Under the pieces are notes generated by a model that was given only the letters and a program-made list of their open reading frames with translations, did no database searches and was not told the DNA's origin. Source: Deltaproteobacteria bacterium (GTDB lineage Bacteria > Myxococcota > Kuafuiibacteriia > Kuafuiibacteriales > Kuafuiibacteriaceae). From it: a stretch of 64,000 nucleotides of DNA. The stretch is from positions 85,148 through 149,147 of the forward strand of contig JAVJQW010000003.1 in assembly GCA_040218735.1 (NCBI GenBank), read 5' to 3'. This document shows, one piece after another, positions 1 through 14,268 of the stretch (positions are counted from its first letter, which is position 1; each line of letters starts with the position of its first letter). A program made the position numbers and the translations under genes.

Positions 1-593
1 AATCCATTGAGTGGATAGTCGGTGTTGCGCCCGATGATCATGTCGCCGCCCGACGTCGCATCCCCCCACGCCGCAAACGACGTGCATTGCGACGGCGCAG
101 CCCCCACTGCGAGCCGCGAGAAGCGACCGAGGAGCACCTGCGCCGTCTCGGGTGCGAGCGCGGCGTCCACGATCGTCTGCACGTCGATCCCCGTGGCGTC
201 CGCCAGCCCGTGGGCCTCCGCGAGCGCTTCCTGATCCGGGCGCAGCCGCCGCGCGTGCCGAACGCCGGTGCGCAGGATCCGTCGCGCGATGCGCTTCATC
301 GCGTACCACTTCACGGCCGCCCCGAGCGGGCCGTTGCCGACGCTCACCTCGATGGCGTCGGTGGCGATCCGGCTCGCGCGCTCGAGTGATCCGTCGGCGA
401 TCTCCTCCGCGAGGAGGCGCCCGTGCTGATACGCCATCGCGTAGCGATCGCCGGTGAGGTGGAGGATCCACAGGCCGTGGTGATGCTTCGCCCACGCGGG
501 ACCGAAGCGCCGCGTGCCGTCGGCGTCGACGGTGCGCTCCGTGTCGGTGAACGCGGGGGCGGGGGCGCGGCGGGCGAAGAGGAACGGGAGCAT
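1..593 (-). CDS. C45-family (AAT/Ntn-hydrolase) peptidase, runs off the left window edge
   Basis: Not in the ORF track. Manual translation from ATG at 593 gives MLPFLFARR...LHLTGDRYAMAYQHGRLL...SQ/CTSFAAWGDATSGGDMIIGRNTDYPLNG, with the CTS autocleavage site and GRNxD motif. Confidence 0.8.
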   Translation of the reverse strand, partial: MLPFLFARRAPAPAFTDTERTVDADGTRRFGPAWAKHHHGLWILHLTGDRYAMAYQHGRLLAEEIADGSLERASRIATDAIEVSVGNGPLGAAVKWYAMKRIARRILRTGVRHARRLRPDQEALAEAHGLADATGIDVQTIVDAALAPETAQVLLGRFSRLAVGAAPSQCTSFAAWGDATSGGDMIIGRNTDYPLNG

Positions 594-708
594 CGCGTTC
601 GAGCGAAGCGGCCCGGGGCACGCGCGGTCAAAGGGTGGACGTCCGCGACCCGACGGACTCGGGGTTCAAAGGCCGCACGGGGACCGAGACCCGAACGCCA
701 CGCCGGCA

Positions 709-877
709 CGAGGTCGCCGGAGGCGCCGCCGAGCGACGACGACCCGACGCGTCGGGACGAGGTCGCCGAAGGCGCCGCCGAGCGACGACGACCCGACGCG
801 TCGCTGCGAGGTCACCGGAGGCGCCGCCGAGCGACGACGGCCCGACGCGTCGCTGCGAGGTCAGCGGAGGCTCCGCC
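709..877. repeat. Intergenic tandem repeat, 49-bp unit, about 3.5 copies
   Basis: Unit CGAGGTCGCCGGAGGCGCCGCCGAGCGACGACGACCCGACGCGTCG(GGA/CTG) starts at 709, 758, 807 and 856. Confidence 0.9.
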
Positions 878-935
878 CGTGCGCCGACGTCGGCGCGAGG
901 CTCCGATTCGCTTCGAGGCGCGCGGGCGCCCGGCC

Positions 936-2924
936 TCAGAGCCGGAACGCGCGCACTACGATCACCGCCGCCTGCGCGCGCGTGAGCGCGTCGGCCGGGC
1001 AGTACCGCCCCGTCGCGCAGCCGCGCACGTCGTTGCGCGCCGCGAGGCGCTCGATCGCCTTGGATGCCCAGTGCGACAGCGGCACGTCGCTGAACGTCGG
1101 CGACGACGGCACGCGATCCGCCAACCCCAACGCCCGCCGCACGAACACCGCGCCGGCGGCGCGCGACACGCCGTCCTCGGGGCAGAAACGTCCGCTCGCG
1201 CACCCCTGCATGACCCCTCGCGAGGCGACCTCTTCGACCTCCGCGAAGCCCCAGTGCCCACGCCCCACATCGTTGAACGACGCGGACGACGGCGCGCTGA
1301 AGCTCATCCCGTCCACGCGAGCGATCGCGTACGCGAGCTCCGCCCGCGTGATGGGTTGGTTCGGGCAGAACTGTCCGGGCGCGCACCCCCACAGCGCGCC
1401 GAGCGCACGCAGCTTCTCGGCCGCGCCGTGCCCGAAGGTCCCGGCCGGGAGGTCGCTGTAGGAACCGGCCGGCGGCGCGGCGCACTGGTCGGGCGTACCC
1501 TGCGGCATCGACTGACAGCCGTTCGCGCAGCGGGTGCGGCTCCGTTCGTTGTTGTTCGCGCAGACCACGAGGTCGTTGCCGTCGCACCAGGTGCCGGCGT
1601 GGGTGTCGCAGAACGACGGCGCCGGCGCGCAACGGTCCGGGGTGCCCTGCGGCATCGACTGGCACCCGTGGGTGCAGCGCGTGCGGCTCACCGTCGCGCC
1701 CGCGTTGCAGACGACGCGGTCGTTGCCGTCGCACCACGTCCCGGTCTTGCCCGCGCAGAACGACGGCGGCGCGTGGCAACGATCGGGCGTTCCGCTCGGC
1801 ATCGATCGACACCCGTGCGCGCAGCGGTTCCGGCTGACCTGGGAGCCGTTGCGGCAGACGACGAGGTCGTTGCCATCGCACCACGTCCCGCCGTGCGTCG
1901 CGCAGAACCCACCGCCGCCGCCGGGGTTCGAGCCACGCGCTATCGCGATGAGGTCGGAGAGGCGAGCGTACAGCGCACCGCCCGGGCAGGCGGTGCTGCC
2001 GAGCTGTCGGTGCCCCTTCACGTACGTGCGGTTGAGCGTAATGCCGTACTCCCGCGAGAGCGACTTCAGGATGCGACCACCCGCCGCGAACATCGCGTTG
2101 CTCGGCGCGCGCGACGTGAACGTTCCGATGTAGCTCACGCCCGCGTTGTTCGTGTTGTGCCCACCGACGTGCGCACCGATGAGGCGCTCCGGTCGCCCCT
2201 GATAGACGCGGCCGTCCTGTCCGACGAGGAAGTGGTACCCCACGTCGCACCAGCCTCGAGAGTTCATGTGGAACGACTGGATCTGCCGGACGCGCGCGGC
2301 CTGCGACATGCTGTCGTTGTTCGGCGTGACGGTGTGGTGGACGGTGATGCGGTTGGGGCGGTGGCCACCGCTGCAGCGCGACGCGCGCGCGCCCCACGCT
2401 GAGCGCGACACCGCAACCCCGGTTGACGCGAGCCCGCTCGCGGACGTCCCGATCTCTTCGACTTCCTCGACCGGCTGCGGATCGAAGTGGAACGCTTCCA
2501 CCGCGAGGAACGACAGGTCGAGGACCTCGGAGGTCGAGAAGCGGAGCTGCACGTGGGTGCCGCCCTCGCGGACGTCGACGTGCGCGTTCTTCGCGCGCTC
2601 CTCTGAGAACGTGATCTCGGCGTCGAGCCACGCGCCGAACGTCTCCCCGCCGTCGTTCGAGACGCGCGCCTGGGCGAGCACGGCGCCGGTCGCGTCGAAA
2701 CGGAACGCAATGCGATCGAACTCGACGTCGAGCGGGATGGCGTCGGTGCGTTGCCAGCCGTCTTCGACGACGAGGCGGCTCGCGAGCTCTTCGTCCTGGG
2801 CGACGAACGCCACCTCCGGCTCGTCGATCGCCTCGGCCGGGTGCAGAAGGTCGGCGTCGGCGCAGGCCACGACGAGTGTCGAAAGCGCGGCGAGGTGGAA
2901 CGGACGGAGGCGTACGGCGGACAT
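936..2924 (-). CDS. Lipoprotein N-acetylmuramoyl-L-alanine amidase (PGRP/Amidase_2) with three Cys-rich repeats and C-terminal SLH domains
   Basis: Lipobox LVVAC; amidase motifs VHHT, WCDVGYHF, GAHVGGHN, GHRQ..STACPG; SLH-like FxDV...HW, F.P...ITRAE and LTRAQ. Confidence 0.85.
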   Translation of the reverse strand: MSAVRLRPFHLAALSTLVVACADADLLHPAEAIDEPEVAFVAQDEELASRLVVEDGWQRTDAIPLDVEFDRIAFRFDATGAVLAQARVSNDGGETFGAWLDAEITFSEERAKNAHVDVREGGTHVQLRFSTSEVLDLSFLAVEAFHFDPQPVEEVEEIGTSASGLASTGVAVSRSAWGARASRCSGGHRPNRITVHHTVTPNNDSMSQAARVRQIQSFHMNSRGWCDVGYHFLVGQDGRVYQGRPERLIGAHVGGHNTNNAGVSYIGTFTSRAPSNAMFAAGGRILKSLSREYGITLNRTYVKGHRQLGSTACPGGALYARLSDLIAIARGSNPGGGGGFCATHGGTWCDGNDLVVCRNGSQVSRNRCAHGCRSMPSGTPDRCHAPPSFCAGKTGTWCDGNDRVVCNAGATVSRTRCTHGCQSMPQGTPDRCAPAPSFCDTHAGTWCDGNDLVVCANNNERSRTRCANGCQSMPQGTPDQCAAPPAGSYSDLPAGTFGHGAAEKLRALGALWGCAPGQFCPNQPITRAELAYAIARVDGMSFSAPSSASFNDVGRGHWGFAEVEEVASRGVMQGCASGRFCPEDGVSRAAGAVFVRRALGLADRVPSSPTFSDVPLSHWASKAIERLAARNDVRGCATGRYCPADALTRAQAAVIVVRAFRL
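1482..1907 (-). repeat. Three intragenic 147-bp (49-aa) six-Cys repeats
   Basis: FCxxxxGTWCDGNDxVVCxxxxxxSRxRCxxGCxSMPxGTPDxC repeated three times at 147-bp period. Confidence 0.9.
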
Positions 2925-3069
2925 GGATCTCGAAATACGTCCGGACCCGCGGTACACGCAATCGCACAAGGCGAGTCATTTCACAGACTTGTGGCTATCG
3001 GGTTACAGGTGTGGATCGCGGGGTTACGGGTTGGGTGACGGACCTGCGCCACTTCGTACACTAAGAGAC

Positions 3070-3876
3070 GTGCGTTACCCGGTCGTCTTCACGTCATCGC
3101 TGCTCGTCGCCGGGTGCGTCGCGGGTACGGAGTCGCTCGAATGTACGACCGACTTCGAGTGCGGACCGAACCGGCTCTGCGTCGAGCGAACATGCTCGGA
3201 GCCTCAGGACGGCGGCGTTTCCGCACCGACCGACGCGGGGACGAACGTTCCCAACGACGCGGGCCCGAACGTCCCCGATGACGGCGGGACGATCACACCA
3301 CCCGACGCGAGCGTCCCGCCCTACGACGGCGGGACCCCGGGGCCCTTTCCGTTCCCGCAGCCACCGCCGCACCCGGAGTGCACGATGGAGGGCCCGGTGC
3401 CGTGTACGTGTGAGGACGGGGACGACGGAACACAGCAATGCCGAAGTGACGGGACCTTCGGCCGCTGCATCTGCGACGACGGCGAACGCTCGCGACTCGA
3501 ACGCTTGCGCGGCGGCATCGTGGGCCTCTGGGGAGGGACGCGCACGTCGGTCTGGGATCAGACGAAGCCGGTGTACGTGCTGTTCCTCGAAGACGGAACC
3601 TACGGCGCGCAGTGCAACGACGCTTGCACCGCGTTCTACTGGGGCACGGATGGCCCGCCGACGCCGGCGCGCTACTACTACCTCTACGACGTCACGGCCG
3701 ACGACACCGGGCGCGGCGACCTCGACCTCGTGTGGCGCAACGACGATCCGCGCGGGCAGCGCTACGCGTTGGAGCGCATCGAGCTGTCCGAGGACGAGGA
3801 GAGCCTGCGGTTCGAGTTCCGGCGGCCGGACAACAACAACCCGCTGCACTTCGACCTGCGCCGCGTCCCCCGCTGA
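3070..3876 (+). CDS. Cys-rich lipoprotein of unknown function
   Basis: GTG at 3070, lipobox LVAGC, CxxDxEC..C..C motif, DAG/DGG-rich linker. The upstream part of the listed ORF is antisense shadow of the amidase. Confidence 0.75.
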   Translation: MRYPVVFTSSLLVAGCVAGTESLECTTDFECGPNRLCVERTCSEPQDGGVSAPTDAGTNVPNDAGPNVPDDGGTITPPDASVPPYDGGTPGPFPFPQPPPHPECTMEGPVPCTCEDGDDGTQQCRSDGTFGRCICDDGERSRLERLRGGIVGLWGGTRTSVWDQTKPVYVLFLEDGTYGAQCNDACTAFYWGTDGPPTPARYYYLYDVTADDTGRGDLDLVWRNDDPRGQRYALERIELSEDEESLRFEFRRPDNNNPLHFDLRRVPR

Positions 3877-3944
3877 CCTGCACGCGGGCGCTGCGACCGC
3901 GATCACGCTTTGCATCGAGGGGCCGTCGCCGGGTCTGGATCCGC

Positions 3945-5123
3945 ATGCTCCCCCGCACGTTCGCCGTCCTCCCAGTGTTCGCTTTGGCGGCGTGCGGCGG
4001 GAGCGGTTGAAAGGGTGTGTCGAGCGGCTCGAAGCCGACGAAGCGGTCGACGCCCGACGCGGGCGTGACGACCGCGCACTCGGCGTCGCCGCTATCGGAG
4101 GACACGTTTGTCTTCGAGGTTCGGGTCGCCTCGGGTGCATCCGAGATCCATGCGTTCGACGTCGCGACATCGCAGCGCCGGAAGATCTTCACGGTGGCGG
4201 ACACGACGACCTGGGACCTGACCGACCTGGCGTTGTCGCCGTCGCGGGACACGATCGCGTTCAGCTCACACTTCGGCTACGACCCGATGCAGTTCCCGCT
4301 CGAGGACGGTCTGCCGACGCAGTCGATCTGGACGGTCGGCGTGGATGGCGCTTCACCTCGTCAGCTGATGGCGCCGCTCGCCGACGACCGCGGCGCGATC
4401 GAGTGCACGCACGACTCGACGTGTGAACCGTTGGGGATGAAGTGCTCCACGGTGTTGTCGCGCTGCCGTGACTTCGCGCGGACGCGGACGGTGTCGGAGC
4501 TCGTGTGGTCGCCGAACGGGGCGGAGGTCTGGTTCGTCTACGCCGACCACGACTGGCAGGGGACGCAGCTTCGCGGCGGCACGACGCTCGGCCGCGTCGC
4601 GGCGACGGGCGGCGCGCCGGAGCTGTTCGCGGCGAACGGCGGCTGCGCCCAGGTCACGGGTCCGGCGCCCCACCCCGTCGACGGATCGCTCGTCGCGGTG
4701 CAGAGCGTGTGCACGCGGGGTGGCGCGCGCATGGTGCGGTTCGACTCGATGCCGCCGCGTGAGGGGACGGAGCTGTTCAGCGAAGCCGACGTGGAGTTCT
4801 CGCTCGACCTCTCCGACGTCGAGTGGGCGCGCGACGGCAGCGGCTTCATCTTCGGCGCGTGGGGCGGCGCGTTTGCGTCCGACGCCATCGTCTACCTCGA
4901 AGCGGCCACGGGGACGCTGTATCTCGCATTCGAGGCCGGCGTGGGCCGGTGGATCGAGAGCCAGGACCTCGCGCCCGATTCGAAGCGCATGGTCGTATGC
5001 GTGGGCGAGACGGGCGCCGACGGCGAGGCGCGGCGGGACCTGTACCTCGTCGACCTCACGGCGACGACGCCAAGCGCGACGCGGCTGACGACGGACGGGA
5101 TCAGCTGCAACGCGAGCTGGTGA
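3945..5123 (+). pseudogene. TolB/WD40-like beta-propeller lipoprotein interrupted by an in-frame TGA (4008-4010)
   Basis: MLPRTFAVLPVFALAACGGSG*KGVSSGSK is in the same frame as the 4017-5123 ORF; PD40-like motifs LSPSRDTIAF, WSPNG, WARDG, LAPDSK. Confidence 0.6.
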
Positions 5124-5147
5124 GGTATCCCACAGGCTGCCTGGCCT

Positions 5148-5456
5148 CTAGGTCCCGCTCGCACAGCTCCACTTTGGATACGAGTCAGACTTGTGGCGGT
5201 TGTTCCTCCAGTGGAGCGGCTGGAGATTACTGAGATCGTCGCTACCCCCCGCCGACACTGGAACGATGTGGTCGACCTCCCATCCGAACTCCCCGGTCGT
5301 TCCGTAGCTCCCATACTTCATGGGGGCTCCACAGACATCCTGACGCCACACGTTCGCATCATATCCGGGTATCGGACGCCCCTTCGACCAGACGAGGTCC
5401 ACGGTGTGATGTGAGAACCCGAATCCGATCAACGTACTTCCAAAACTTCGAGTCAT
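5148..5456 (-). CDS. Small HNH endonuclease
   Basis: GWEVDHIVPVSAGGSDDLSNLQPLHWRNNRHK HNH signature; GGAGGA Shine-Dalgarno just upstream of ATG 5456. Confidence 0.85.
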   Translation of the reverse strand: MTRSFGSTLIGFGFSHHTVDLVWSKGRPIPGYDANVWRQDVCGAPMKYGSYGTTGEFGWEVDHIVPVSAGGSDDLSNLQPLHWRNNRHKSDSYPKWSCASGT

Positions 5457-5471
5457 AGATTCCTCCAACGC

Positions 5472-5511
5472 GCGGTGCGCGACTACCTCTATCTTAGAGG
5501 TCGCGTGCCGC
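5472..5511 (-). promoter_or_regulatory. Inverted repeat/hairpin directly upstream of the HNH ribosome-binding site
   Basis: GCGG-TG-CGCGA-CTA-CCTCTA-TCT-TAGAGG-TCGCG-TG-CCGC. Confidence 0.55.
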
Positions 5512-5534
5512 AGGACCAGCGTTTCGATTGTCGA

Positions 5535-5620
5535 TGATCGACCTGGGATCGCGTGATCGCCCTACGACCGTTGGTTCTGGTTTGCGATCGCCACGAGATC
5601 GCGCGATCGTTCCTCGATCG
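5535..5620. promoter_or_regulatory. Two 36-bp pseudo-palindromic boxes (putative WYL operators), 50-bp period
   Basis: GATC/GACC at 5536, 5547, 5555, 5566 and at 5586, 5597, 5605, 5616; spacing is 11-8-11 in both; cores GATCGCGTGATC and GATCGCGCGATC. Confidence 0.6.
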
Positions 5621-5621
5621 C

Positions 5622-6596
5622 ATGGCAACCAGGAATCAGGACGGGAAGCGATCGCTACGACTACTGGCCAAGCTAATGGGAGGGGCCAGGCTGGATCGCA
5701 ACTCAGCAGCCAAGGCACTGGGGACCGAGCCCCCTGCTGCGTATCAGCACCTGAAAGCGCTGGCTGCCACTGTTCCAGGAGTACGCTCTGTAAAGGGAGG
5801 AGGGACCACGACGTACTTCTTCGATTCCGGGCGACTCGTTGAGCCGCCAAGCCTTCCCGAGGTGATCGCAGCGTGTCTCGCAAGCAGCCTTTCCGGGCTG
5901 TTCCGCGATTCGCAGTACGAACATCGAATTCAGACGGTCTTCGACTTCATTGTTCGGTCGGCGCGAAGGCGACCGGGCTTCGCGAATATCCGGCGGAAGT
6001 TCTACTTTGTTGTCGGCGGAGGTGAGGTAGCGCTTGCTCAGAACGAGGGGCTTCTGGACGACGCAATCAACGCGCTGATCGCAAGCAAGTGGATTCGCAT
6101 TCGATATGTTCATTTCAACGGTGATGAGGAAACGGTCGACATTCAACCTCTAACGCTCGCGATCCATGACCACCAGTTGTACCTCGTTGGACAAAACTCC
6201 ACGGCAAGGCACCCATACAGATTCGCGAGAATCCGAGACCTTGAAGAACTTGAGACGCGATTCTCCTATCCGACGGCCTCAGAGTACGATCCGACAACGT
6301 TGTTCCGCTCGAGCTTTGGGGTGTTCGTTTCCGAGGACTTTCCGAGTCAACGTGTGGTGGTACGGCTCCATCCTAGATGGGAGACCTACGCACTCAATCA
6401 CCGATGGCATCCGTCCCAGGAGGTCAAGCGCGGCGACAATGGGATCACGGTAAGGCTGCAAGTCAGAGTGTGCCCCGAGGTCGAAGCATGGGTCCTAGGC
6501 TTCGGGAATGACGCGGTGGTCATTGAGCCCGAAGCGCTCCGGACGAAGATTGCCGGCCGCCTTAGGGCGGCCAGCGAAAGCTACGGTGGTGAGTGA
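5622..6596 (+). CDS. WYL-domain transcriptional regulator (wHTH-WYL-WCX)
   Basis: N-terminal HTH; WYL core IRIRY...IQPLTL...LYLVG...YRFARI; WCX part WHPSQ...EVEAWVLGFG..AVVIEPEALR. Confidence 0.9.
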   Translation: MATRNQDGKRSLRLLAKLMGGARLDRNSAAKALGTEPPAAYQHLKALAATVPGVRSVKGGGTTTYFFDSGRLVEPPSLPEVIAACLASSLSGLFRDSQYEHRIQTVFDFIVRSARRRPGFANIRRKFYFVVGGGEVALAQNEGLLDDAINALIASKWIRIRYVHFNGDEETVDIQPLTLAIHDHQLYLVGQNSTARHPYRFARIRDLEELETRFSYPTASEYDPTTLFRSSFGVFVSEDFPSQRVVVRLHPRWETYALNHRWHPSQEVKRGDNGITVRLQVRVCPEVEAWVLGFGNDAVVIEPEALRTKIAGRLRAASESYGGE

Positions 6597-6598
6597 TG

Positions 6599-6615
6599 TG
6601 TTGCGCTGAGCAACA
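6599..6615. terminator. Short hairpin between the convergent WYL and panB genes
   Basis: TGTTGC-GCTGA-GCAACA; no U-tract. Confidence 0.3.
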
Positions 6616-6620
6616 TTCGC

Positions 6621-7529
6621 CTAGACCGGCACGCCGTAGAGGCCGCCGACTTCGTCGTCGTCGTCGATCTCCTGGGGCGCGGGGCGCACCACCTCCACGG
6701 GCCGGAACAGCTGCTCCTTGGAGTGGAACGTGTGCCGCTCCTCCGGGAAGGTGCCCTCGACGACTTCGCGCTTGTACTCGCCGACCGCTTCGACGACGGC
6801 GTCGCCGAGCTTGGCGTAGCGCTTCACGAACTTCGGGACGAAGTCCTCGAACATGCCGAGGAGGTCGTAACAAACGAGCACCTGGCCGTCGCAGTCGACG
6901 CCGGCGCCGATGCCGATCGTCGGGATCGACAGCTGCGCCGTGACCACGCGCGACAGCTCCACCGGCACGCCTTCCAACACGATCGCGTACGCGCCCGCGG
7001 CTTCGAGCGCCTTCGCGTCGCGCAGGATGCGCTCGGCCGCCGCGGCGTCCTTGCCCTGCACCTTGAAGCCGCCCATCGCGTGCACCGACTGCGGCGTGAG
7101 GCCGAGGTGGCCCATGACCGGGATGCCCGCGCCGACGAGGCGCTCCACCAGCGGCGCGTACACCGCGCCGCCTTCGAGCTTCACCGAGTGCGCGCCGCCC
7201 TCCTTCATCAGGCGGCCGGCGCTCCTAAAGCCTTCGGTCGGGTCGGCCTGGTAGCTCATGAACGGCAGGTCCGCGACGACGTGCGCGCGGGACGCGCCGC
7301 GGACGACCGCGCGGGTGTGGTAGATGATGTCGTCGAGCGTGACCGCGAGGGTGTTCTGCGCGCCCTGGATCACCATCCCGAGCGAGTCGCCCACGAGGAT
7401 GACGTCGGCGCCGCCGCGGTCGACCAACCGCGCCATCGTCGCGTCGTACGCGGTGATCATGGTGATGCGCTCGCCGTCGGCCTTCATCTGCCGCAGCGTG
7501 GACGCAGTGACTTGTTTGATTCGCTTCAT
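6621..7529 (-). CDS. panB: 3-methyl-2-oxobutanoate hydroxymethyltransferase
   Basis: [40 protein letters not shown]. Confidence 0.97.
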
Positions 7530-7606
7530 CGTTGACCTCTCGAGGTCGACGCTCCTCACGAGGAGAAGTCGCCGCCCCGCCTTCAGTCGGGGTGAACGAC
7601 GCGTTC

Positions 7607-8272
7607 TCAGCGACGCGTCGCGTAAGGATTATAGTGCTGAACGCCTTTTTTCATTCGACGAATGGCGGAGATGACATCTTCCAAATGATTCTCCTTTTCG
7701 ACGATGTCGATCTCCGAGGTGTTGATCACCAGCAGCGGCGTCCGGTCGTAGCGGAAGAAGTAGTCGTTGTACGCCGAGGACACCCGCTCCAGGTAATCCT
7801 GCGTGATCGGCCGCTCCCAATCGCGGTTCCGACTGCGGATTCGGTCGAGGAGCACCTGCGGCCGCGCCTGCAGGTACACCACCAGATCCGGCTTCGGGAC
7901 GCGGGGATCGAGCAGCCCGTAGATCCGGTCGTACAGCGCGAGCTCCGCCTCCTCGAGCGTCAGGTACGCGAAGATCCGGTCCTTCTGGAAGATGTAGTCG
8001 ACGACCGTGCTGCGCGTGAACAGGTCCGGCTGCTTCAGCGATAGCTGCTGCTGGTAACGCGACAGCAGGAAGAACATCTGCGTCTGGAACGCCGTACGGC
8101 GCGGATCCGAGTAGAACTGCCGCAGGAACGGGTTCGTCTCGACCTCCTCGAGCACCAGCTGCGCGGACAGGCGCTTCGCCAGGGATCGGGCGAGCGTCGT
8201 CTTCCCCACGCCCACGGGCCCCTCGATCGCGATCGTCCGCGGGGCCTCCTTTTCGTTCCTGCGCTTGGGCAT
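7607..8272 (-). CDS. Deoxynucleoside kinase (dNK/dGK family)
   Basis: [14 protein letters not shown]-loop, NPFL..FY, Q.FFL.SR, PDLVVYL; upstream of panB. Confidence 0.92.
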
Positions 8273-8360
8273 TTCGCCGGCGCGACTGTACGGACCGATC
8301 CGCGCTCCGCGCAAGCGACGACGGTGGCCATACATCGAAACATATGGTCATATTTTGCCA

Positions 8361-8588
8361 GTGAATCCGGACCCCAACGTGACACGCGCCCTGCTCAAGC
8401 TCCTCGTCGCGGTGAAGGCCAACCCCAACGCCGACGTCGACGCCCTCATCGCCGCCGCCGCCCACGCCTCGGGGATCTCCGCGGAGGGGTTGCGCGCGTA
8501 TGCGATCGAGCACACGGGCTTGCTCGCCGGCGCGCCGCGGGAGGACGTTGTCTCCGTCGCCGCCGCCGCGCTGGCGAAGGGAAGGTAG
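8361..8588 (+). CDS. Small hypothetical helical protein
   Basis: GTG start, strong third-position GC bias, same strand as downstream genes. Confidence 0.5.
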   Translation: MNPDPNVTRALLKLLVAVKANPNADVDALIAAAAHASGISAEGLRAYAIEHTGLLAGAPREDVVSVAAAALAKGR

Positions 8589-8596
8589 GACCGAGT

Positions 8597-9367
8597 GTGA
8601 GCCGTTGCCATCACCGAACGCGGAGGGGAGGCGCCGCGCTGGTGTTGGTCGCCGCTCTGTACGCCTGCGAGGGATCGTCGGGCGTCGCAGAGCGTAGCAT
8701 CGCCGGCAACGTCGACCTCCTCACCGCCCGCACGCTCGTCGTGGATTCGGTGGTGGAAGTGATCGTGACCGGCAACCCCAGAGCAGACGACATCGCTTAC
8801 GCGCTGGACGCCGTTGTCACCGCTTCCACCGCGACCGTCGCCAATCGCCTCGCGGATCGCTTGGTCATCGGTGTGGATCGCCCCGAGGACGACGTCGTTC
8901 GCGTCCGCCTCGACCCGCTCGACAACGGCACCCTCAGCGGACAGCTGCGGCTCACCGTCCCGTCCGATCTCGATCTCGGCGTCCTGCAGCGCGCCGCGCA
9001 GGTCACCGTCGATTCGATGGACGCCGTCGTGCAGGTCGACTCGATCGGCGCGGTGCGGATCGTCGATCCCGGCGGCTACGTCTCGGTCGGCGTGCAGACC
9101 GGCGCGGTGGTCGTGGAGTCGACGCTCCCGGTCGGCGAGACGACGGAGGTCTCGGTGCGCAACGGCGACATCCAGCTGCTCGTCCCGCAGCAGATCAGCG
9201 CCGCGATCAGCGCGACCGCCGGTGGTGCGGGGAGCGTGCAGATCCAACATCCGAGTCTCCCGCGACCCCTCGCGAACCGGCCCTACGCCGCAACGGTCAA
9301 CGGCGGCCTCAACAGCGTGCGCCTGTCGACGATGAACGGCAGCGTGTTCATCCAGGTACAACAGTAA
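8597..9367 (+). CDS. Lipoprotein with DUF4097/adhesin-like beta-strand repeats
   Basis: Lipobox LYAC; repeated VxTGxV/VRNGDI/TMNGSV strands. Confidence 0.6.
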
Positions 9368-9378
9368 GGAGCTCGGTC

Positions 9379-10674
9379 GTGAGCGAGAAGTTCGTCATCG
9401 AAGGTGGGTCGCCCATCAGCGGCACCATTCGTCCCAGCGGTAACAAAAACGCCGCGCTGCCGCTCGTCGCGGCGACACTCCTCACCGACGAGGAGGTCGT
9501 CCTCAGAAACCTCCCCGACATCCGCGACGTCCGCGTGCTCACCGAGATCGTCGAGCAGCTCGGCGTCACCGTCTCGCACCGCGAGCCCGGCGTCGTCTCG
9601 TTCACCGCGAACCGCGTCAACGGCAAGGAGCCGGACGCCAGCCAGTGCATGCACATCCGCGCGTCGGTGCTGCTCGCCGGCCCGCTCGTCGCGCGCCGCG
9701 GACACGTCGAGCTCCCGCCCCCCGGCGGCGACGTCATCGGGCGCCGCCGCCTCGACACCCACGTCCTCGCCCTCGAAGCGCTTGGTGCGAAGTCCGAGTA
9801 CGGCCCGAAGACCTACCGCTTCACCGCGCCGGGCCGCCTGCAGGGCGCCGACGTCTTCCTCGACGAAGCCTCCGTGACCGCGACGGAGAACGCGATCATG
9901 GCGGCCGCGCTCGCGGAGGGGACGACGATCCTCGAGAACGCCGCGGGTGAGCCGCACGTGCAGGACCTCTGCCGATTGATCAACGCGATGGGCGGATCGA
10001 TCCGCGGCATCGGGACGAACCGCCTCGAGATCGAAGGCGTCGAACGCCTGCACGGCGCCGACTACACCCTCGGCCCGGACTACATCGAAGTCGGCTCGCT
10101 CATCACCCTCGCCGCGGTCACCGGCGGCGAGCTGCGCATCCTCGACGCGCGCCCCGAGGAGCACCGCTCGACGCGGATCGCTTTCAAGAAGATCGGGATC
10201 GAATTTCACGCCGGAGAGAACGGCCGCGACATCGTCGTGCCCGGCGGCCAGCGCATGAAGGTAGCCGAAGATCTCGGCGGCGCGATCCCCAAGATCGAAG
10301 ACTCACCGTGGCCCGGCTTCCCGGCGGACCTCACGTCGATCGCCGTCGTCGGCGCGACGCAGAGCGAAGGCACGGTGCTCATCTTCGAGAAGATGTTCGA
10401 GTCGCGCCTGTTCTTCACGGACCGCCTCGCGTCGATGGGCGCGAAGCTGATCCTCTGCGACCCTCACCGCGTCGTCGTCAGCGGCAAGTCGAACCTCATC
10501 GCGCAGGAGCTCGTCAGCCCGGACATCCGAGCGGGCATGGCGCTGGTGATCGCTGCGCTGTGCGCCGAAGGCACGAGCGTCATCCACAACGTGCAGCAGA
10601 TCGATCGCGGCTACGAACGCATCGACGAACGCCTCAACGCCCTGGGCGCAAAGATCCAGAGAAGCCCCGGCTGA
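9379..10674 (+). CDS. murA: UDP-N-acetylglucosamine 1-carboxyvinyltransferase
   Basis: [26 protein letters not shown] (Asp at the Cys115-equivalent position), WPGFPAD, DIRAG, IDRGYE. Confidence 0.96.
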
Positions 10675-10698
10675 ATCCGCCGCATCCCGAATCACAAA

Positions 10699-10790
10699 CC
10701 TAGCCCCAGCCCCAGCCCTTCGAGGCTCGGCGAGGCCGCGGCAAAACGGAGGCCTCAACGCTGGGAGGGCGAGGGCTGGGGCGAGGGGGT
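10699..10790. repeat. REP-like palindromic element, family B copy 1
   Basis: CCTAGCCCCAGCCCCAGCCCTT...AGGGCTGGGGC between convergent genes; homologous to 52031-52139. Confidence 0.65.
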
Positions 10791-10806
10791 CCCCTGGTCG
10801 CGGCCT

Positions 10807-11724
10807 CTAGCGCGCCACCGCAACGCTCTCCGCAACCTGATGCCCCAGATGCACCGCCATCCCCGGGTGCCGCTTCGCCAACGCGATCAGCGCATTCAGG
10901 CTCTCCGCGTTCGCCTCGTGATCCGCCGTGAACGACCCCGGCTCCACGCCGTGGTCCCACCCCCACGCGGTGTGTGAAGTATCGCCGACGATCAACGCCG
11001 GCCCCTCCGTCGTGCGCGCCACGAACGCCAGGCTCCCGGGCGTGTGCCCCGGGACGTGGATCGCGAACAGGCTCCCGTCGCCGAACACGTCGACCACCGC
11101 GCGCGGCGCGACTTCGAGCTCGCGCAGATCCAACCCGTCGAGCGCGCGATCCGTGGTGCCCTGCACGAACATGTACGAGAACATCGACGCCTCGTGCTCG
11201 CCCGGTCCCACGTAGACCGGCGTCCCGTCCGGCACGTCCGGCAGCCCCATGATGTGGTCGATGTGCAGGTGCGTGAGGAACACCCCCGCCGGCGCGCCGT
11301 TGTCCGCGATCCACGCGCGCGTGTCGCGATGCACCACCAGCTTCTCCATACCCATGACCGACGCAACCAGCGACGACAGCGCCGAGTCGTCCGCGTCGCC
11401 GTCGACCAGCGCCTGCTCCACGCCCGAGTCGACGAAGAACGCGCCCCGCTCCGGGTGGTGCAACACGTACAGATAGATCTGGATCGGCTCCTCGCCGTCC
11501 TCGAGCCCCTCCGCCTCCGGGTGGTCGAGGTTGATCAACCCACCGCGCTCCACGGCCCAATCCGCCGCGACCACCTTCTCCAGACGGATGGGCCCCGGCG
11601 CCGCCAGCGACGCCTCCATCACCTCCATCGACACCACGGGGCCGAGCTCGGCGGGGCGCGTCGTCGCGGAGGTCACGCTACAGCCGACGCAGGACAGGGA
11701 CAGGAGCCAAACGCTTCGATTCAT
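10807..11724 (-). CDS. Metallo-beta-lactamase-fold hydrolase lipoprotein (AHL-lactonase-like)
   Basis: THLHIDH, PGHTPG, VGD and C-terminal GH; lipobox CVGC. Confidence 0.85.
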   Translation of the reverse strand: MNRSVWLLSLSCVGCSVTSATTRPAELGPVVSMEVMEASLAAPGPIRLEKVVAADWAVERGGLINLDHPEAEGLEDGEEPIQIYLYVLHHPERGAFFVDSGVEQALVDGDADDSALSSLVASVMGMEKLVVHRDTRAWIADNGAPAGVFLTHLHIDHIMGLPDVPDGTPVYVGPGEHEASMFSYMFVQGTTDRALDGLDLRELEVAPRAVVDVFGDGSLFAIHVPGHTPGSLAFVARTTEGPALIVGDTSHTAWGWDHGVEPGSFTADHEANAESLNALIALAKRHPGMAVHLGHQVAESVAVAR

Positions 11725-11789
11725 GGTGTCCATTTTGGGCATCCGATTCCAGATGGAAATCCGCTAAATTCGGATGCACCCATTCGATC

Positions 11790-12695
11790 ATGCATATCCC
11801 CTGGAACGACGTCGCTCTCTTCCTCGCCGTCGCCGAGACCGCGAGCTTCTCCGCCGCTGCGCGTCGGCTCGGGCTCGGCCAGCCGACGATCAGTCGCCGG
11901 ATCGCCCAGCTCGAGGAGCTCCTCGAACGCGCCCTCTTCTTCCGCGGCGCGGAAGGCGCCCAGCTCACCGCGGCCGGCGAGCGGCTCCTCCCGGTCGCGC
12001 GCCGGATGGCGGAGTGCGCCGGAGAGCTCGAACGCCTCGCGACCGACGACGATCCCACGCCCGAGGGCGTCGTCCGCGTCGCCGCGCCGCCCGGGATCGC
12101 GTTCGATTTCCTCGCCCCCTTCGCCGCGCACCTCGCGAAGCGAAGCGCCGGGCTGCGACTGGAGGTCCTCGCGAGCGTCACGCACCTCGACCTCCTCCGC
12201 AACGAAGCGGACCTCGCGCTCCGCACCAAGAAGCCCACGCTCCACGAGCTCGCGTGCCTCGCCGAGGTGCAGGTCCCCGCGCGCGCGTTTGCGTCGAAGG
12301 ACTACGTCAAACGCCTCCGGCCGAAGTACGGCCCCGCGGACGTCGACTGGATCACGTGGGCGCCGCCGTACCACAACCTGCCCCCGCGACCGCAGCTGGA
12401 GAAGCTGATCGAAGGGTTCGAGCCGTCGTTCACATCCGACAGCTTCCTGGTGCAACGCGCCGCCGCCGAGGCCGGGCTCGGCGCGATGTTCGCGGGGATC
12501 GTCGACCACCGCTTCGTGCGCCGAACCCGGCTCGTGCCGCTCGACCTCGACTTCGGCGTGGTGTCGTCGACGTACCTCGTGTGCGCGCAGACCATGGTGC
12601 GCGTCCCGCGCGTGCGCGCGGTGATCGACCTGCTCCTCGAGGAGATCGGACGCACCGAGGGCATCGAGCTGACCGTGCAACTGGACCCGACTTGA
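11790..12695 (+). CDS. LysR-family regulator
   Basis: SFSAAARRLG..QPTISRRI..LE HTH, LT.AGE; divergent from the MBL gene. Confidence 0.95.
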   Translation: MHIPWNDVALFLAVAETASFSAAARRLGLGQPTISRRIAQLEELLERALFFRGAEGAQLTAAGERLLPVARRMAECAGELERLATDDDPTPEGVVRVAAPPGIAFDFLAPFAAHLAKRSAGLRLEVLASVTHLDLLRNEADLALRTKKPTLHELACLAEVQVPARAFASKDYVKRLRPKYGPADVDWITWAPPYHNLPPRPQLEKLIEGFEPSFTSDSFLVQRAAAEAGLGAMFAGIVDHRFVRRTRLVPLDLDFGVVSSTYLVCAQTMVRVPRVRAVIDLLLEEIGRTEGIELTVQLDPT

Positions 12696-12726
12696 CGCGC
12701 GGCGCGAGGCGCGCAGGCTGGGCGCC

Positions 12727-13419
12727 GTGCGCACCGCCGTCGTCGCTCTCGTCACCCTCCTGATCGGGTTCGCGCTCGGGTGGGCGCTCAAACCCACGCC
12801 CTCGCCCGTCGCCGCTGCCTCCACCGAAGCGATCGCGCGCACCGAGACACGCGTCGTGACGAAGACCGTCGAGGTCCCCGCCGCGAAGCGCGAGCGCGCA
12901 ACCCCCTCGCTCGAACACCAGGTCCAGCAGCTCACCGTCGACAAGGCCGCCGCCGAGGCACGCGTCGCGGAGCTCGAAGCGCAGCTCGACAACCAGCGCG
13001 CAGTGACCAAGCAGCTCGAAGGTCGCGCGATCGCGTGGCCGGACGGCGTCGATCCGCGCTTCACCGAGCCGCGCTTCCTCGCTGCGCTGAACGACGCGAT
13101 GGCGAAGGAGAAGCTCCCCGGTGAGGTCCGCGGCCTCGACTGCACGGAGTTCCCGTGCATCGCGCACGGTCAGCTCGAGCTGGACAACCCGCGCGACCGC
13201 GAGAAGCTCGAGCGCCTCTTCGCTTCGATGAAGAGCCGGTATCCGGGCGCCGACTTCTACATCTCCCAAACCGTCCATACCGACGACCCCAACGGCAGCG
13301 ATCCCGCGCAGCAACGCTTCTCGATGTCGTTTTATCCGCCCGAGAGCGACGACGAGGCCCGACGCGCGATGAACGTGCGGTTGCGCAGCCGAAAGAACGC
13401 ATACGTCGACGCGGAATGA
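12727..13419 (+). CDS. Membrane-anchored coiled-coil hypothetical protein
   Basis: N-terminal TM, coiled coil, DCTEFPC motif, coding-like codon bias. Confidence 0.7.
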   Translation: MRTAVVALVTLLIGFALGWALKPTPSPVAAASTEAIARTETRVVTKTVEVPAAKRERATPSLEHQVQQLTVDKAAAEARVAELEAQLDNQRAVTKQLEGRAIAWPDGVDPRFTEPRFLAALNDAMAKEKLPGEVRGLDCTEFPCIAHGQLELDNPRDREKLERLFASMKSRYPGADFYISQTVHTDDPNGSDPAQQRFSMSFYPPESDDEARRAMNVRLRSRKNAYVDAE

Positions 13420-13500
13420 CGATCCGGCCCCCGCGCGACGTCCAACGTCCGTGGGTGCGTTGACAGAGCCTCGACCTCTCCGTACGGGTGGAAGGTCGTC

Positions 13501-14268
13501 ATGAGAGGCATTCGGCTACTCGGATTCACGATGCTCGCGGCGCTCGTCGCGGGCCCCGCCGCCGCGAAGACACCGGACGGCTGGGAGTACATCGGGACCG
13601 ACAGCAACGTCACGCTGTACAAGAAGAACGTCGAGGGCAGCGACATGTTCGCGTTCCGCGGCATCACCTACGCGGACGTCCACATCGGGAAGCTCTACGA
13701 AGTCCTCCGGGACCCGGACCAACGCGCCGACTGGGTCGACCGCTACGAGGACGGCGGCACCCTCAAGATGATGGACGACGGACAGGAGTATTGGATCCAC
13801 TTCGGGCTCCCGTGGCCCGTCGCCGACCGCGACTACGTGCTGCGCTCCAAGTCGAAGCTCCTCCCCGACCGCCGCACGCTCATCGTGAACATCAACTCCT
13901 TCGAGCACCCGAAGCGACCGCCGAACGACTGCTGCGTCCGCGCGCTCGCCAAACGCACGTACTACGAGTTCACCGCGATCCCCGGCGAAGAGCGGACGAA
14001 GCTCGTCGTCGAAGTGCACACCGACCCGCGCGGCTCGCTGCCGTCGTGGCTCGTGAACATCATCCAGAAGAAGTGGCCGTCGAAGACCCTCTCGGGCCTC
14101 ATCGCTCAGACGAAGAAGTCGAACCCGAAGCCCAACGTCGCGATGAAGGACTGGCACGACAAGTCGGTCGCCGCCGCCGAGCCCGCGCCCGAGCCAACGA
14201 CGCCCGAAGCGCCCGCGACCGAGACGACGCCCGAGGCCGAAGCGCCCGAGGGTGAGTCCGCGCCCTAG
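13501..14268 (+). CDS. Exported START-domain lipid-binding protein
   Basis: Signal peptide; LPWPVADRDYV and DPRGSLPSWLVN. Confidence 0.88.
   Translation: MRGIRLLGFTMLAALVAGPAAAKTPDGWEYIGTDSNVTLYKKNVEGSDMFAFRGITYADVHIGKLYEVLRDPDQRADWVDRYEDGGTLKMMDDGQEYWIHFGLPWPVADRDYVLRSKSKLLPDRRTLIVNINSFEHPKRPPNDCCVRALAKRTYYEFTAIPGEERTKLVVEVHTDPRGSLPSWLVNIIQKKWPSKTLSGLIAQTKKSNPKPNVAMKDWHDKSVAAAEPAPEPTTPEAPATETTPEAEAPEGESAP

Follow-up and report, generated by a model that had tools for sequence, protein, structure and literature searches.

Why should a GC-rich stretch of bacterial DNA be interrupted, exactly between the stop codons of two convergent genes, by a small patch of different composition that holds only a nuclease gene and a regulator gene? 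The question is raised by positions 5124 to 6620 of a stretch of 64,000 nucleotides from a Deltaproteobacteria bacterium of the Myxococcota (assembly GCA_040218735.1, contig JAVJQW010000003.1, positions 85,148 to 149,147 of the forward strand). We refer to this whole 64-kb stretch as the window, and to the patch as the islet. Its two genes are transcribed away from each other and encode a stand-alone nuclease of the HNH type and a transcription factor with winged helix-turn-helix (wHTH), WYL and WCX domains. The islet is most economically explained as a sensor-plus-nuclease cassette that was acquired laterally. Going one step further, we suggest that this cassette is self-contained, and that a WYL factor sensing single-stranded DNA (ssDNA) controls the minimal HNH nuclease via palindromes in the spacer between the two genes; we regard this fuller account as a serious possibility, if not quite a probable one.

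Composition and content of the islet

The window has a G+C content (GC) of about 70%, which falls to 0.49-0.62 over the islet (approximately positions 5100-6600) and recovers sharply on both sides. Both islet genes have a GC of 0.58. At third codon positions (GC3) the HNH gene reaches 0.699 and the WYL gene 0.643, compared with 0.86-0.95 for eight flanking genes read in their own frame (the interval 3021-3876, which is out of frame, was left out of this set). The enrichment in A/T-ending codons that a sequence-only reading of this DNA had pointed out is thus real. The same reading described the islet as holding only an HNH nuclease of about 102 amino acids (aa) and a divergent wHTH-WYL-WCX regulator, with no integrase or transposase, and both statements stand: two open reading frames (ORFs) with family matches lie in the islet, they are the only HNH ORF and the only WYL ORF of the entire window, and no integrase or transposase domain was found among the ORFs scanned from base 3 to 12695. 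No tRNA was found within positions 1-14000 of the window. At the islet edges we looked for target-site duplications and terminal repeats; this gave only weak matches (70-83%) within the flanking genes, which we take to be chance. The coordinates of the islet and its surroundings are collected in Table 1, together with the gene systems that lie downstream of related HNH genes in other genomes.

Table 1. Features of the islet, its boundary genes, and defence systems located downstream of related HNH genes (locus handles in place of positions).
Feature	Position or locus	Strand	Remarks
Low-GC two-gene islet	5124..6620		occupies the whole interval from one stop codon to the other of two convergent host genes
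Stand-alone HNH (beta-beta-alpha-metal) nuclease, 102 aa	5148-5456	minus	Pfam HNH 3.7e-9
Divergent control region, 165 bp	5457-5621
Perfect 17-bp palindrome ACCTCTA-tct-TAGAGGT, candidate operator	5485-5501		28-45 bp upstream of HNH start
GATCG array, candidate (auto)regulatory operators	5536-5620		two copies of GATCG-N6-GATCGCG(T/C)GATCG, 50 bp apart
wHTH / helical linker / WYL / WCX transcription factor, 324 aa	5622-6596	plus	Pfam WYL and WCX
Interrupted lipoprotein gene, left boundary, outside the module	3948-5123	plus	in-frame TGA 4008-4010
panB, right boundary gene, outside the module	6621-7559	minus	Pfam 9e-116, TIGR00222 1.9e-102
CBASS cyclases with effectors, downstream of HNH	L045, L076
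Type I restriction-modification, downstream of HNH	L006, L013, L050, L053, L082
QatABC, downstream of HNH	L051
Shedu, downstream of HNH	L025
Hachiman-like helicase, downstream of HNH	L033
E1/E2 and multi-ubiquitin genes, downstream of HNH	L005, L024, L028, L084
ShosA, downstream of HNH	L046

A DriD-like WYL regulator

The WYL ORF spans 5553-6596 on the plus strand (347 aa). We place the start at the ATG at 5622, which gives a protein of 324 aa and is backed by the start positions of homologues, whereas these lend no support to a longer protein that begins with the GTG at 5553. Pfam recognises the WYL domain (9.1e-9, residues 168-231 of the 347-aa ORF) and the WCX domain (7.6e-15, residues 266-340), while no Pfam HTH model matches the protein. 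An N-terminal wHTH is suggested by the alignment with DriD of Caulobacter crescentus, in which residues 9-322 of the query pair with residues 11-329 of the DriD chain (single sequence, expectation value E of 4-5e-8); a weak profile match to an ArsR-type wHTH (2kko, 8.2e-4) is consistent with this. Among 1.84 billion representative sequences, the subfamily of the regulator comprises 138 clusters at an E of 1e-30 or better, the best of which is 47% identical. Some WYL relatives carry Myxococcota names, which, like the base composition, points to a host resembling the myxobacteria. Four longer proteins in the subfamily were examined for fusions and have no added Pfam domain.

A profile built from this subfamily (A2) matches DriD at 6.9e-34 (8tp8_A, profile positions 6-325 against chain positions 20-343) and 8.3e-34 (9pfq_Q), and PafBC at 1.5e-27 (6sj9). 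BrxR is matched at 4.3e-4 only (7qfz), over profile positions 147-218 in the WYL domain, and against the PDB no match to CapW or to 7t8k was seen at an E of 0.01 or better. Judged by these comparisons of sequence, the regulator is of the DriD/PafBC/SiwR architectural class rather than of the BrxR/CapW family. The sequence-only reading had named DriD, PafBC, BrxR and CapW together as precedents; the likeness to the ssDNA-sensing, damage-type WYL proteins holds, and the likeness to BrxR and CapW has to be given up.

DriD (structures 8TP8, 7TZV and 9PFQ) is of nearly the same length as the window protein (327 vs 324 aa), aligns with it over the whole protein and shares part of its ssDNA contacts. 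DriD is described as controlling its own bidirectional promoter and the endonuclease gene bapE (PMC13004042), and its regulon as including bapE, recJ and recA (PMC13004042, PMC10853764). The identity between the two proteins is low, however (E about 5e-8), and the window protein belongs to a foreign two-gene islet, unlike DriD, a chromosomal master regulator that has several promoters under its control. In this respect SiwR of Mycobacterium smegmatis offers the closest functional analogy for a WYL module with one target: it is described as a local ssDNA-binding WYL activator that lies beside its target and binds a 19-bp imperfect palindrome in the adjacent target promoter (PMC10693628). It is likened here by function, not by sequence, and its targets are DinB/YfiT-like genes and not a nuclease. 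The BrxR/CapW repressors have the same domain order and are divergent from the genes they regulate, and CapW is described as sensing ssDNA; the window protein is nonetheless about 30 aa longer and has a DriD-like linker region, in addition to the poor match to 7qfz. Nor does it lie beside a recognised defence system as those repressors do: its sole neighbour is the HNH gene, and the flanking genes are of the housekeeping kind.

The residues of DriD that touch ssDNA have been listed by Gozzi et al. 2022 (PMC9186387), and we mapped this list onto 46 members of the subfamily by HMMER sequence alignment only. Y162 is found in 44 of the 46 proteins; Y187 (the tyrosine of the WYL motif) and R200 are present throughout (46/46); position 199 is aromatic in 41 and position 235 in 45 proteins, and position 197 is H, R or K in 38. 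The corresponding residues of the window protein, Y162, Y187, H197, Y199, R200 and F235, are kept or conservatively replaced, while the equivalent of S172 is not kept. It is plausible from this alignment that the window protein, too, has a nucleic-acid ligand.

A minimal HNH nuclease

The HNH ORF spans 5148-5468 on the minus strand, and we chose the ATG at 5456 as the start. A GGAGGA ribosome-binding site lies 5 bases before this ATG, and in a 70-sequence alignment the homologues begin at the same position as the 102-aa protein of the window. The protein collection contains the window HNH solely as a 57-aa form starting at Met46 (P0024); since the N-terminal 45 residues are conserved in the family, this public gene call is probably too short. 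Pfam also recognises HNH_4 in the protein (2e-6), and among the PHROGs it matches an HNH endonuclease (5.4e-11) and endonuclease VII (phrog_1035, 2.1e-10); its best sequence match in the PDB is the HNH domain of Cas8-HNH (1.6e-3). The ESM Atlas model of the exact sequence is confident, with a pTM of 0.85 and a pLDDT of 0.88. An HNH protein of 99% identity (P0001) is encoded on another contig, of 8.6 kb.

Fourteen positions are invariant in the family alignment, and the window protein has all of them, including D62, H63, N77 and N86. We take these four to form a DH...N...N beta-beta-alpha-metal site, assigning their roles by analogy with Cas9 and T4 endonuclease VII. W23 and D40 are invariant in the alignment as well. 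Two cysteines, C42 and C98, are near-invariant, and a CxxC zinc motif is absent; two CxxC zinc pairs typify many, but not all, HNH enzymes. The best reading of the window HNH is that of a minimal, endonuclease VII/Cas9-like nuclease: it would share the catalytic motif class of T4 endonuclease VII and of the Cas9/IscB HNH domain, although the matches to these proteins are domain-level and sub-threshold, and it comes without guide RNA machinery or an accessory domain. The 102 residues contain no extra domain, and thus nothing like the DNA-recognition domain of a homing endonuclease. As the nuclease has neither a sensor nor a targeting domain, its control must act through expression.

A phage origin of the HNH gene was considered and rejected: 284 phage records are matched, of which one covers at least 80% of the protein and the others the catalytic core only. 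A search for longer proteins returned a single fused form, P0235 (205 aa, metagenomic), in which a CopG antitoxin domain (2.9e-29) is joined to the HNH; it may be a true fusion or a merged gene call.

The spacer between the two genes

Two sets of palindromes lie in the 165 bp between the start codons. The perfect 17-bp palindrome on the HNH side occurs once in the 64-kb window even when 2 mismatches are allowed (0.02 expected), and it carries -10-like hexamers on both strands (TATCTT and TAAGAT). On the WYL side, the GATCG array consists of a 35-nt unit repeated 50 bp apart (repeat family D2, palindromes I4 and I7), with 12-bp palindromes at 5547-5558 and 5597-5608, the second of which ends 13 bp ahead of the WYL start. 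The exact 12-mer GATCGCGYGATC is found at 5547 and 5597 only in the whole window, and the densest 100 bp for GATCG/CGATC in the window are those of the array, with 10 occurrences. For comparison, DriD homologues are described as having a box about 17 nt ahead of their own start (PMC10853764). We infer that the spacer palindromes are WYL operators; because the architecture of the regulator is DriD-like, activation is slightly favoured as the direction of control.

An RNA element in the spacer was also considered and rejected, the fold being no better than that of shuffled sequences (z -1.35), and Rfam gave no match in the spacer at an E of 1 or better. The same holds for an operator common to the upstream regions of HNH genes: of the inverted repeats in 84 loci, none recurs in a second locus.

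In the mechanism that we infer, with its operators, its ssDNA ligand, its direction of control, its nuclease substrate and its biological role, the WYL protein would sit as a homodimeric wHTH-WYL-WCX factor on one or both palindrome sets of the spacer. Its WYL domain would bind ssDNA that arises from DNA damage, phage replication or prophage induction, and this binding would switch the divergent HNH gene, and probably the WYL gene too, at the level of transcription. The HNH protein would then be a stress- or infection-induced nuclease from the gene pool of defence islands, of which the window would present the minimal form, a sensor plus a nuclease. We assign it to this pool because its relatives follow interchangeable stress or DNA-damage sensors and because defence genes come directly after them in 15 or more of the 80 loci.

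Genomic company of the HNH family

A genome scan with the HNH protein gave 599 candidate stretches, of which at least 582 were confirmed; the family is thus present in at least 582 species genomes, with a patchy distribution. The best 80 of these (47-65% identity, from many phyla) served as the genomic locus set, over which profiles of the neighbour clusters were run to count regulators, working with crude gene calls over whole loci. A stress regulator stands just upstream of the HNH gene in 24 of the 80 loci (~30%), which should be read as a minimum, since greedy ORF calling breaks down in loci of high GC: 14 are CapH/CapP-like, 5 MerR and 3 LexA-like, and 2 more are extracytoplasmic function (ECF) sigma factors. 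The CapP-like M78 peptidase is found in 15 loci altogether, within 1.1 kb upstream in 14 and 5.7 kb upstream in one, never downstream, and an XRE (CapH-like) gene is found in 17 of the 80. PADLOC calls the two neighbours in locus L024 capH (2.2e-26) and capP (6.1e-56), and gives the same calls for the pair in L006. The five MerR genes are divergent and lie within 350 bp upstream, the three LexA-like genes encode S24 repressors, and an ECF sigma factor precedes the HNH gene in L027, L046 and L076, one of which also has a CapP-like gene. The commonest partner of the family is thus the CapH/CapP switch, an XRE repressor with an IrrE-like peptidase, which is described in a preprint as a DNA-damage switch of immune operons. 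Its logic of damage-induced expression is the one that we propose for the islet, while the genes themselves differ: no match to CapH-like or CapP-like profiles occurs anywhere in the window.

In at least 15 of the 80 loci the HNH gene lies directly upstream of same-strand defence genes, with gaps of roughly 50-700 bp (Table 1). In others the regulator and the HNH gene stand alone, the next gene being on the other strand (L015, L039, L041, L067, L073 and L065), and the window is the WYL version of this minimal regulator-plus-HNH form. Ribonucleotide reductase genes adjoin five loci (L043, L063, L078, L066 and L047), and transposases, integrases or an integron cassette protein adjoin at least six (L036, L040, L052, L079, L080 and L035); the reductase and intein contexts and those with transposases point to mobility. 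A LAGLIDADG intein is present in the reductase gene of L066, and in L047 the HNH gene is accompanied by a second HNH-like ORF, a weak one, at 5193-5630.

A WYL gene beside an HNH gene of this family was found on plasmids. In the plasmid collection 17 records have an HNH match, nine of them Aeromonas plasmids, and in all three of these that were inspected a WYL gene is divergent from the HNH gene (40% identity), between parAG and relE/copG. The Aeromonas WYL protein is of the BrxR/CapW type (7qfz, 7e-33) and has no detectable similarity to that of the window (BLASTP E = 23), so that two unrelated WYL classes are wired to the same HNH family. In a quick tree of the HNH proteins (103 usable columns), 5 of 81 branches are well supported and the branching is in discord with taxonomy; being poorly resolved, the tree speaks neither for nor against a single origin of the WYL-linked HNH genes. 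WYL-HNH fusion proteins were noted by Makarova et al. 2014 (PMC4012209) and show an evolutionary link between the two types of domain found here. The window, unlike these fusions, has two separate divergent genes, and no WYL fusion was found for its HNH family or its WYL subfamily. Immediately downstream of the WYL gene from Aeromonas (locus L003, 2505-2935), a 24-base unit is repeated about nine times in an iteron-like manner, and these repeats read as the reiterated peptide CTHVLMYS in three frames.

Some further arrangements around HNH relatives were noted in passing. In five alphaproteobacterial loci (L041, L056, L067, L073 and L083) a divergent MerR gene lies upstream of the HNH gene and an opposite-strand XRE gene downstream, at a distance of 60-75 bp in L041 and L067 and of 1.1 kb in L056; four of the five HNH proteins (not that of L083) cluster in the tree, with the unlabelled row L060 among them. 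In L035, from a metagenome-assembled genome of Myxococcales, the HNH gene (8004-8306) and a sigma-like ORF (7019-7789) lie between tyrosine-recombinase-like ORFs at 5293-6282 and 9059-10225, the real upstream gene being the sigma-like ORF on the other strand. On two plasmids, pTB1 of Roseobacter (L004) and one of Roseovarius (L087), a more distant HNH relative (39-43% identity) follows a pair of SbcD and an SMC/SbcC-like ATPase; next to come, in the case of L087, are an AAA ATPase and a UvrD-like helicase. On a Synechococcus elongatus plasmid (L001, 4929-10294), same-strand genes for a radical SAM protein, a DUF6375 protein and a large ATP-binding protein come after an HNH relative (54% identity), and about 2 kb upstream of this relative are without an annotated gene.

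Weighing the explanations

Several observations speak against a self-contained cassette of the kind that we suggest. The sequence-only reading had expected the pair to recur in other genomes, and this expectation has largely failed: among the 80 closest genomic HNH relatives none has a WYL gene within 8 kb, so the pairing is rare, and the only further cases found are those on Aeromonas plasmids. Custom WYL profiles searched over all six-frame ORFs of 84 loci were positive only in the Aeromonas plasmid locus L003, and Pfam found no WYL domain in the genomic loci among 78, 73 and 74 neighbour ORFs. Conversely, the plasmid collection has 20 records that match the WYL protein, none of which belongs to its subfamily (the best has 31% identity over half the length). 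No recognised regulator adjoins about 56 of the 80 HNH relatives, which is an overestimate given the crude gene calls (in L035 the gene was called on the wrong strand). In the regulator, two phosphate-contacting arginines of DriD, R176 and R178, are replaced by E170 and V172, at positions that are unconserved in the subfamily. The DriD-type box (CGNC-N6/7-GNCG) is absent from 5401-5700, which includes the spacer; a sigma-70 consensus promoter was not found in the spacer (5457-5621), and no Shine-Dalgarno sequence precedes the WYL ATG. For the HNH protein, PADLOC (PADLOC-DB v2, 2023 release) and NCBIfam have no model and give only weak, sub-threshold matches to Cas9/IscB HNH domains (the best in PADLOC is the Cas9 HNH domain at 5.3e-4), so that a check against known systems does not place it in any of them. 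The genes that flank the islet are housekeeping genes rather than a defence island. The idea of a self-contained sensor and nuclease has thus come through in part: the common composition of the two genes, the shared spacer with palindromes unique in the window and the occurrence of the HNH family near stress and defence genes support it, while the lack of conservation of the pair does not.

The same wiring might serve an endogenous response to DNA damage, the HNH protein being a structure-specific repair or fork-processing enzyme, or a suicide nuclease like BapE, that is induced by a local activator of the DriD/SiwR type. We consider this rather unlikely, although it has a good deal in its favour: the regulator is DriD/PafBC-like and not BrxR/CapW-like, the DriD regulon is described as including bapE, recJ and recA, SiwR as governing adjacent damage-response genes (PMC10693628), and putative HNH endonucleases as being among the mitomycin-C-induced genes of Mycobacterium tuberculosis (PMC8151990). 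The HNH protein itself resembles endonuclease VII, a nuclease of branched DNA (phrog_1035), LexA-like repressors stand beside three of its relatives, and the flanks of the islet are housekeeping genes. A core repair gene, on the other hand, would hardly be expected in a family that is patchy over phyla, whose tree is discordant with taxonomy, and in an islet of foreign composition; same-strand defence genes come directly after at least 15 of the 80 relatives, and partners of the CapH/CapP and BrxR types have been described as regulators of immune operons. As to the role of the nuclease, then, a part in defence appears favoured by the CapH/CapP, BrxR and immune-operon company of the HNH family, whereas a part in damage processing or suicide appears favoured, by analogy, by the DriD-like regulator, the DriD-bapE precedent and the resemblance to endonuclease VII.

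If the two genes were instead uncoupled neighbours, the HNH gene would be a selfish, mobile element in the manner of homing endonucleases, and the WYL protein would regulate only itself or distant genes. The lack of a WYL neighbour in the 80 close relatives, the extremely varied contexts of the HNH gene, its position next to ribonucleotide reductase genes in five relatives (one of them intein-bearing), and the transposases, integrases and integron cassette protein near six others would all agree with this. Yet 102 aa leave no room for a site-recognition domain, and in the window the genes have a common composition and share a spacer with unique palindromes; elsewhere, regulators are found upstream of the HNH gene and never downstream (15 CapP-like, 5 MerR, 3 LexA-like), and on Aeromonas plasmids a WYL gene of an unrelated class stands in the same divergent arrangement with the HNH gene. 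We therefore think that uncoupled neighbours are clearly unlikely. The chance is smaller still that the islet is a relic, in which a regulator and the gene next to it are all that is left of a larger defence operon and no longer have a useful function. In other genomes the HNH gene does often come first behind a regulator and before CBASS, restriction-modification, Qat or ubiquitin-like genes, but both ORFs of the islet are intact, with all family-invariant residues, and arrangements of a regulator and HNH only recur both in the loci listed above and on the Aeromonas plasmids; moreover, as just 24 bases part each islet gene from the stop codon of the flanking host gene, there is no room for operon remnants. 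Least likely of all, we believe, is an arrangement like that of toxins and antitoxins, in which the WYL protein would neutralise the HNH protein by direct contact, besides or instead of acting on transcription. The sole fused form found joins a CopG antitoxin domain to the HNH (P0235), and on the Aeromonas plasmids the pair is part of a maintenance region, next to relE/copG; however, the characterised WYL factors are described as acting on DNA, the HNH gene is found without a WYL gene in all 80 genomic relatives, and the two genes are divergent and do not form one operon.

A broader reading can be set beside the self-contained cassette. The HNH protein of about 100 aa might be a widespread, unnamed first-responder nuclease, a promoter-proximal cargo of at least six sensor classes (DriD-type WYL, BrxR-type WYL, CapH/CapP, LexA-like, MerR and ECF sigma) that nicks or cuts branched DNA ahead of CBASS, type I restriction-modification, Qat, Shedu, Hachiman-like and ubiquitin-like operons, and so amplifies the ssDNA signal. 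We offer this as a speculation to which we give only a slim chance. If it were true, ssDNA made by the HNH protein would feed back on the ssDNA-sensing regulator, and the window would hold the bare loop, one sensor and one nuclease.

Relation to described systems

That WYL regulators adjoin the genes they control is well known, and the fusion of WYL and HNH domains has been on record since 2014 (PMC4012209). In the literature searched, as far as its available text goes, we found no account of a two-gene module of a WYL protein and a small HNH protein, nor of this HNH family as a recurrent cargo of damage sensors. The word HNH is missing from the available text of the papers on the BrxR family, on CapW and ssDNA, on CapK/CapS and on the Acinetobacter WYL protein, and likewise from that of the preprints on CapH/CapP, on the CapP mechanism and on Bub, although the operon tables of any of these may well list such a gene. 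WYL proteins and CapH/CapP are known for switching on large immune operons, and neither the shape of a minimal output nor the reason why many different sensors drive the same tiny nuclease is described in the literature searched. If the self-contained cassette is real, it would provide an easily cloned two-gene system for studying how the sensing of ssDNA is turned into nuclease expression, and a means of asking how an untargeted HNH protein of 102 aa affects a cell or a phage. The regulator and defence company of the HNH family is a testable lead in its own right.

Flanking genes

The sequence-only reading had placed the islet between panB and a broken lipoprotein gene. The position is right, and so is the break: the lipoprotein signal peptide MLPRTFAVLPVFALAACGGSG (LAAC lipobox) is stopped by the TGA at 4008-4010, and an ORF at 4017-5123, which has no Pfam family match, resumes in the same frame. 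The break sits at the far 5' end of the gene, however, and we thus regard it as unrelated to the islet; it could reflect a pseudogene, a sequencing error or read-through. The other flanking ORFs between 3 and 12695 encode an amidase with SLH domains, a deoxynucleoside kinase, a MurA-like enzyme, a protein of the metallo-beta-lactamase fold and a LysR regulator, and the ORFs at 3-593 and 8324-9367 have no Pfam family match. The amidase (936-2969, minus strand) is a protein of 677 aa with Amidase_2 and SLH domains, in whose translation three Cys-rich repeats of about 45 aa each can be seen (GTWCDGNDxVVC...RCxxGCxSMPxGTPDxC). A second, milder dip in GC, to 0.595-0.60, lies at 7400-8000, where the deoxynucleoside kinase gene begins, and takes in the spacer between it and panB; despite this dip, the GC3 of the kinase gene is still 0.856.

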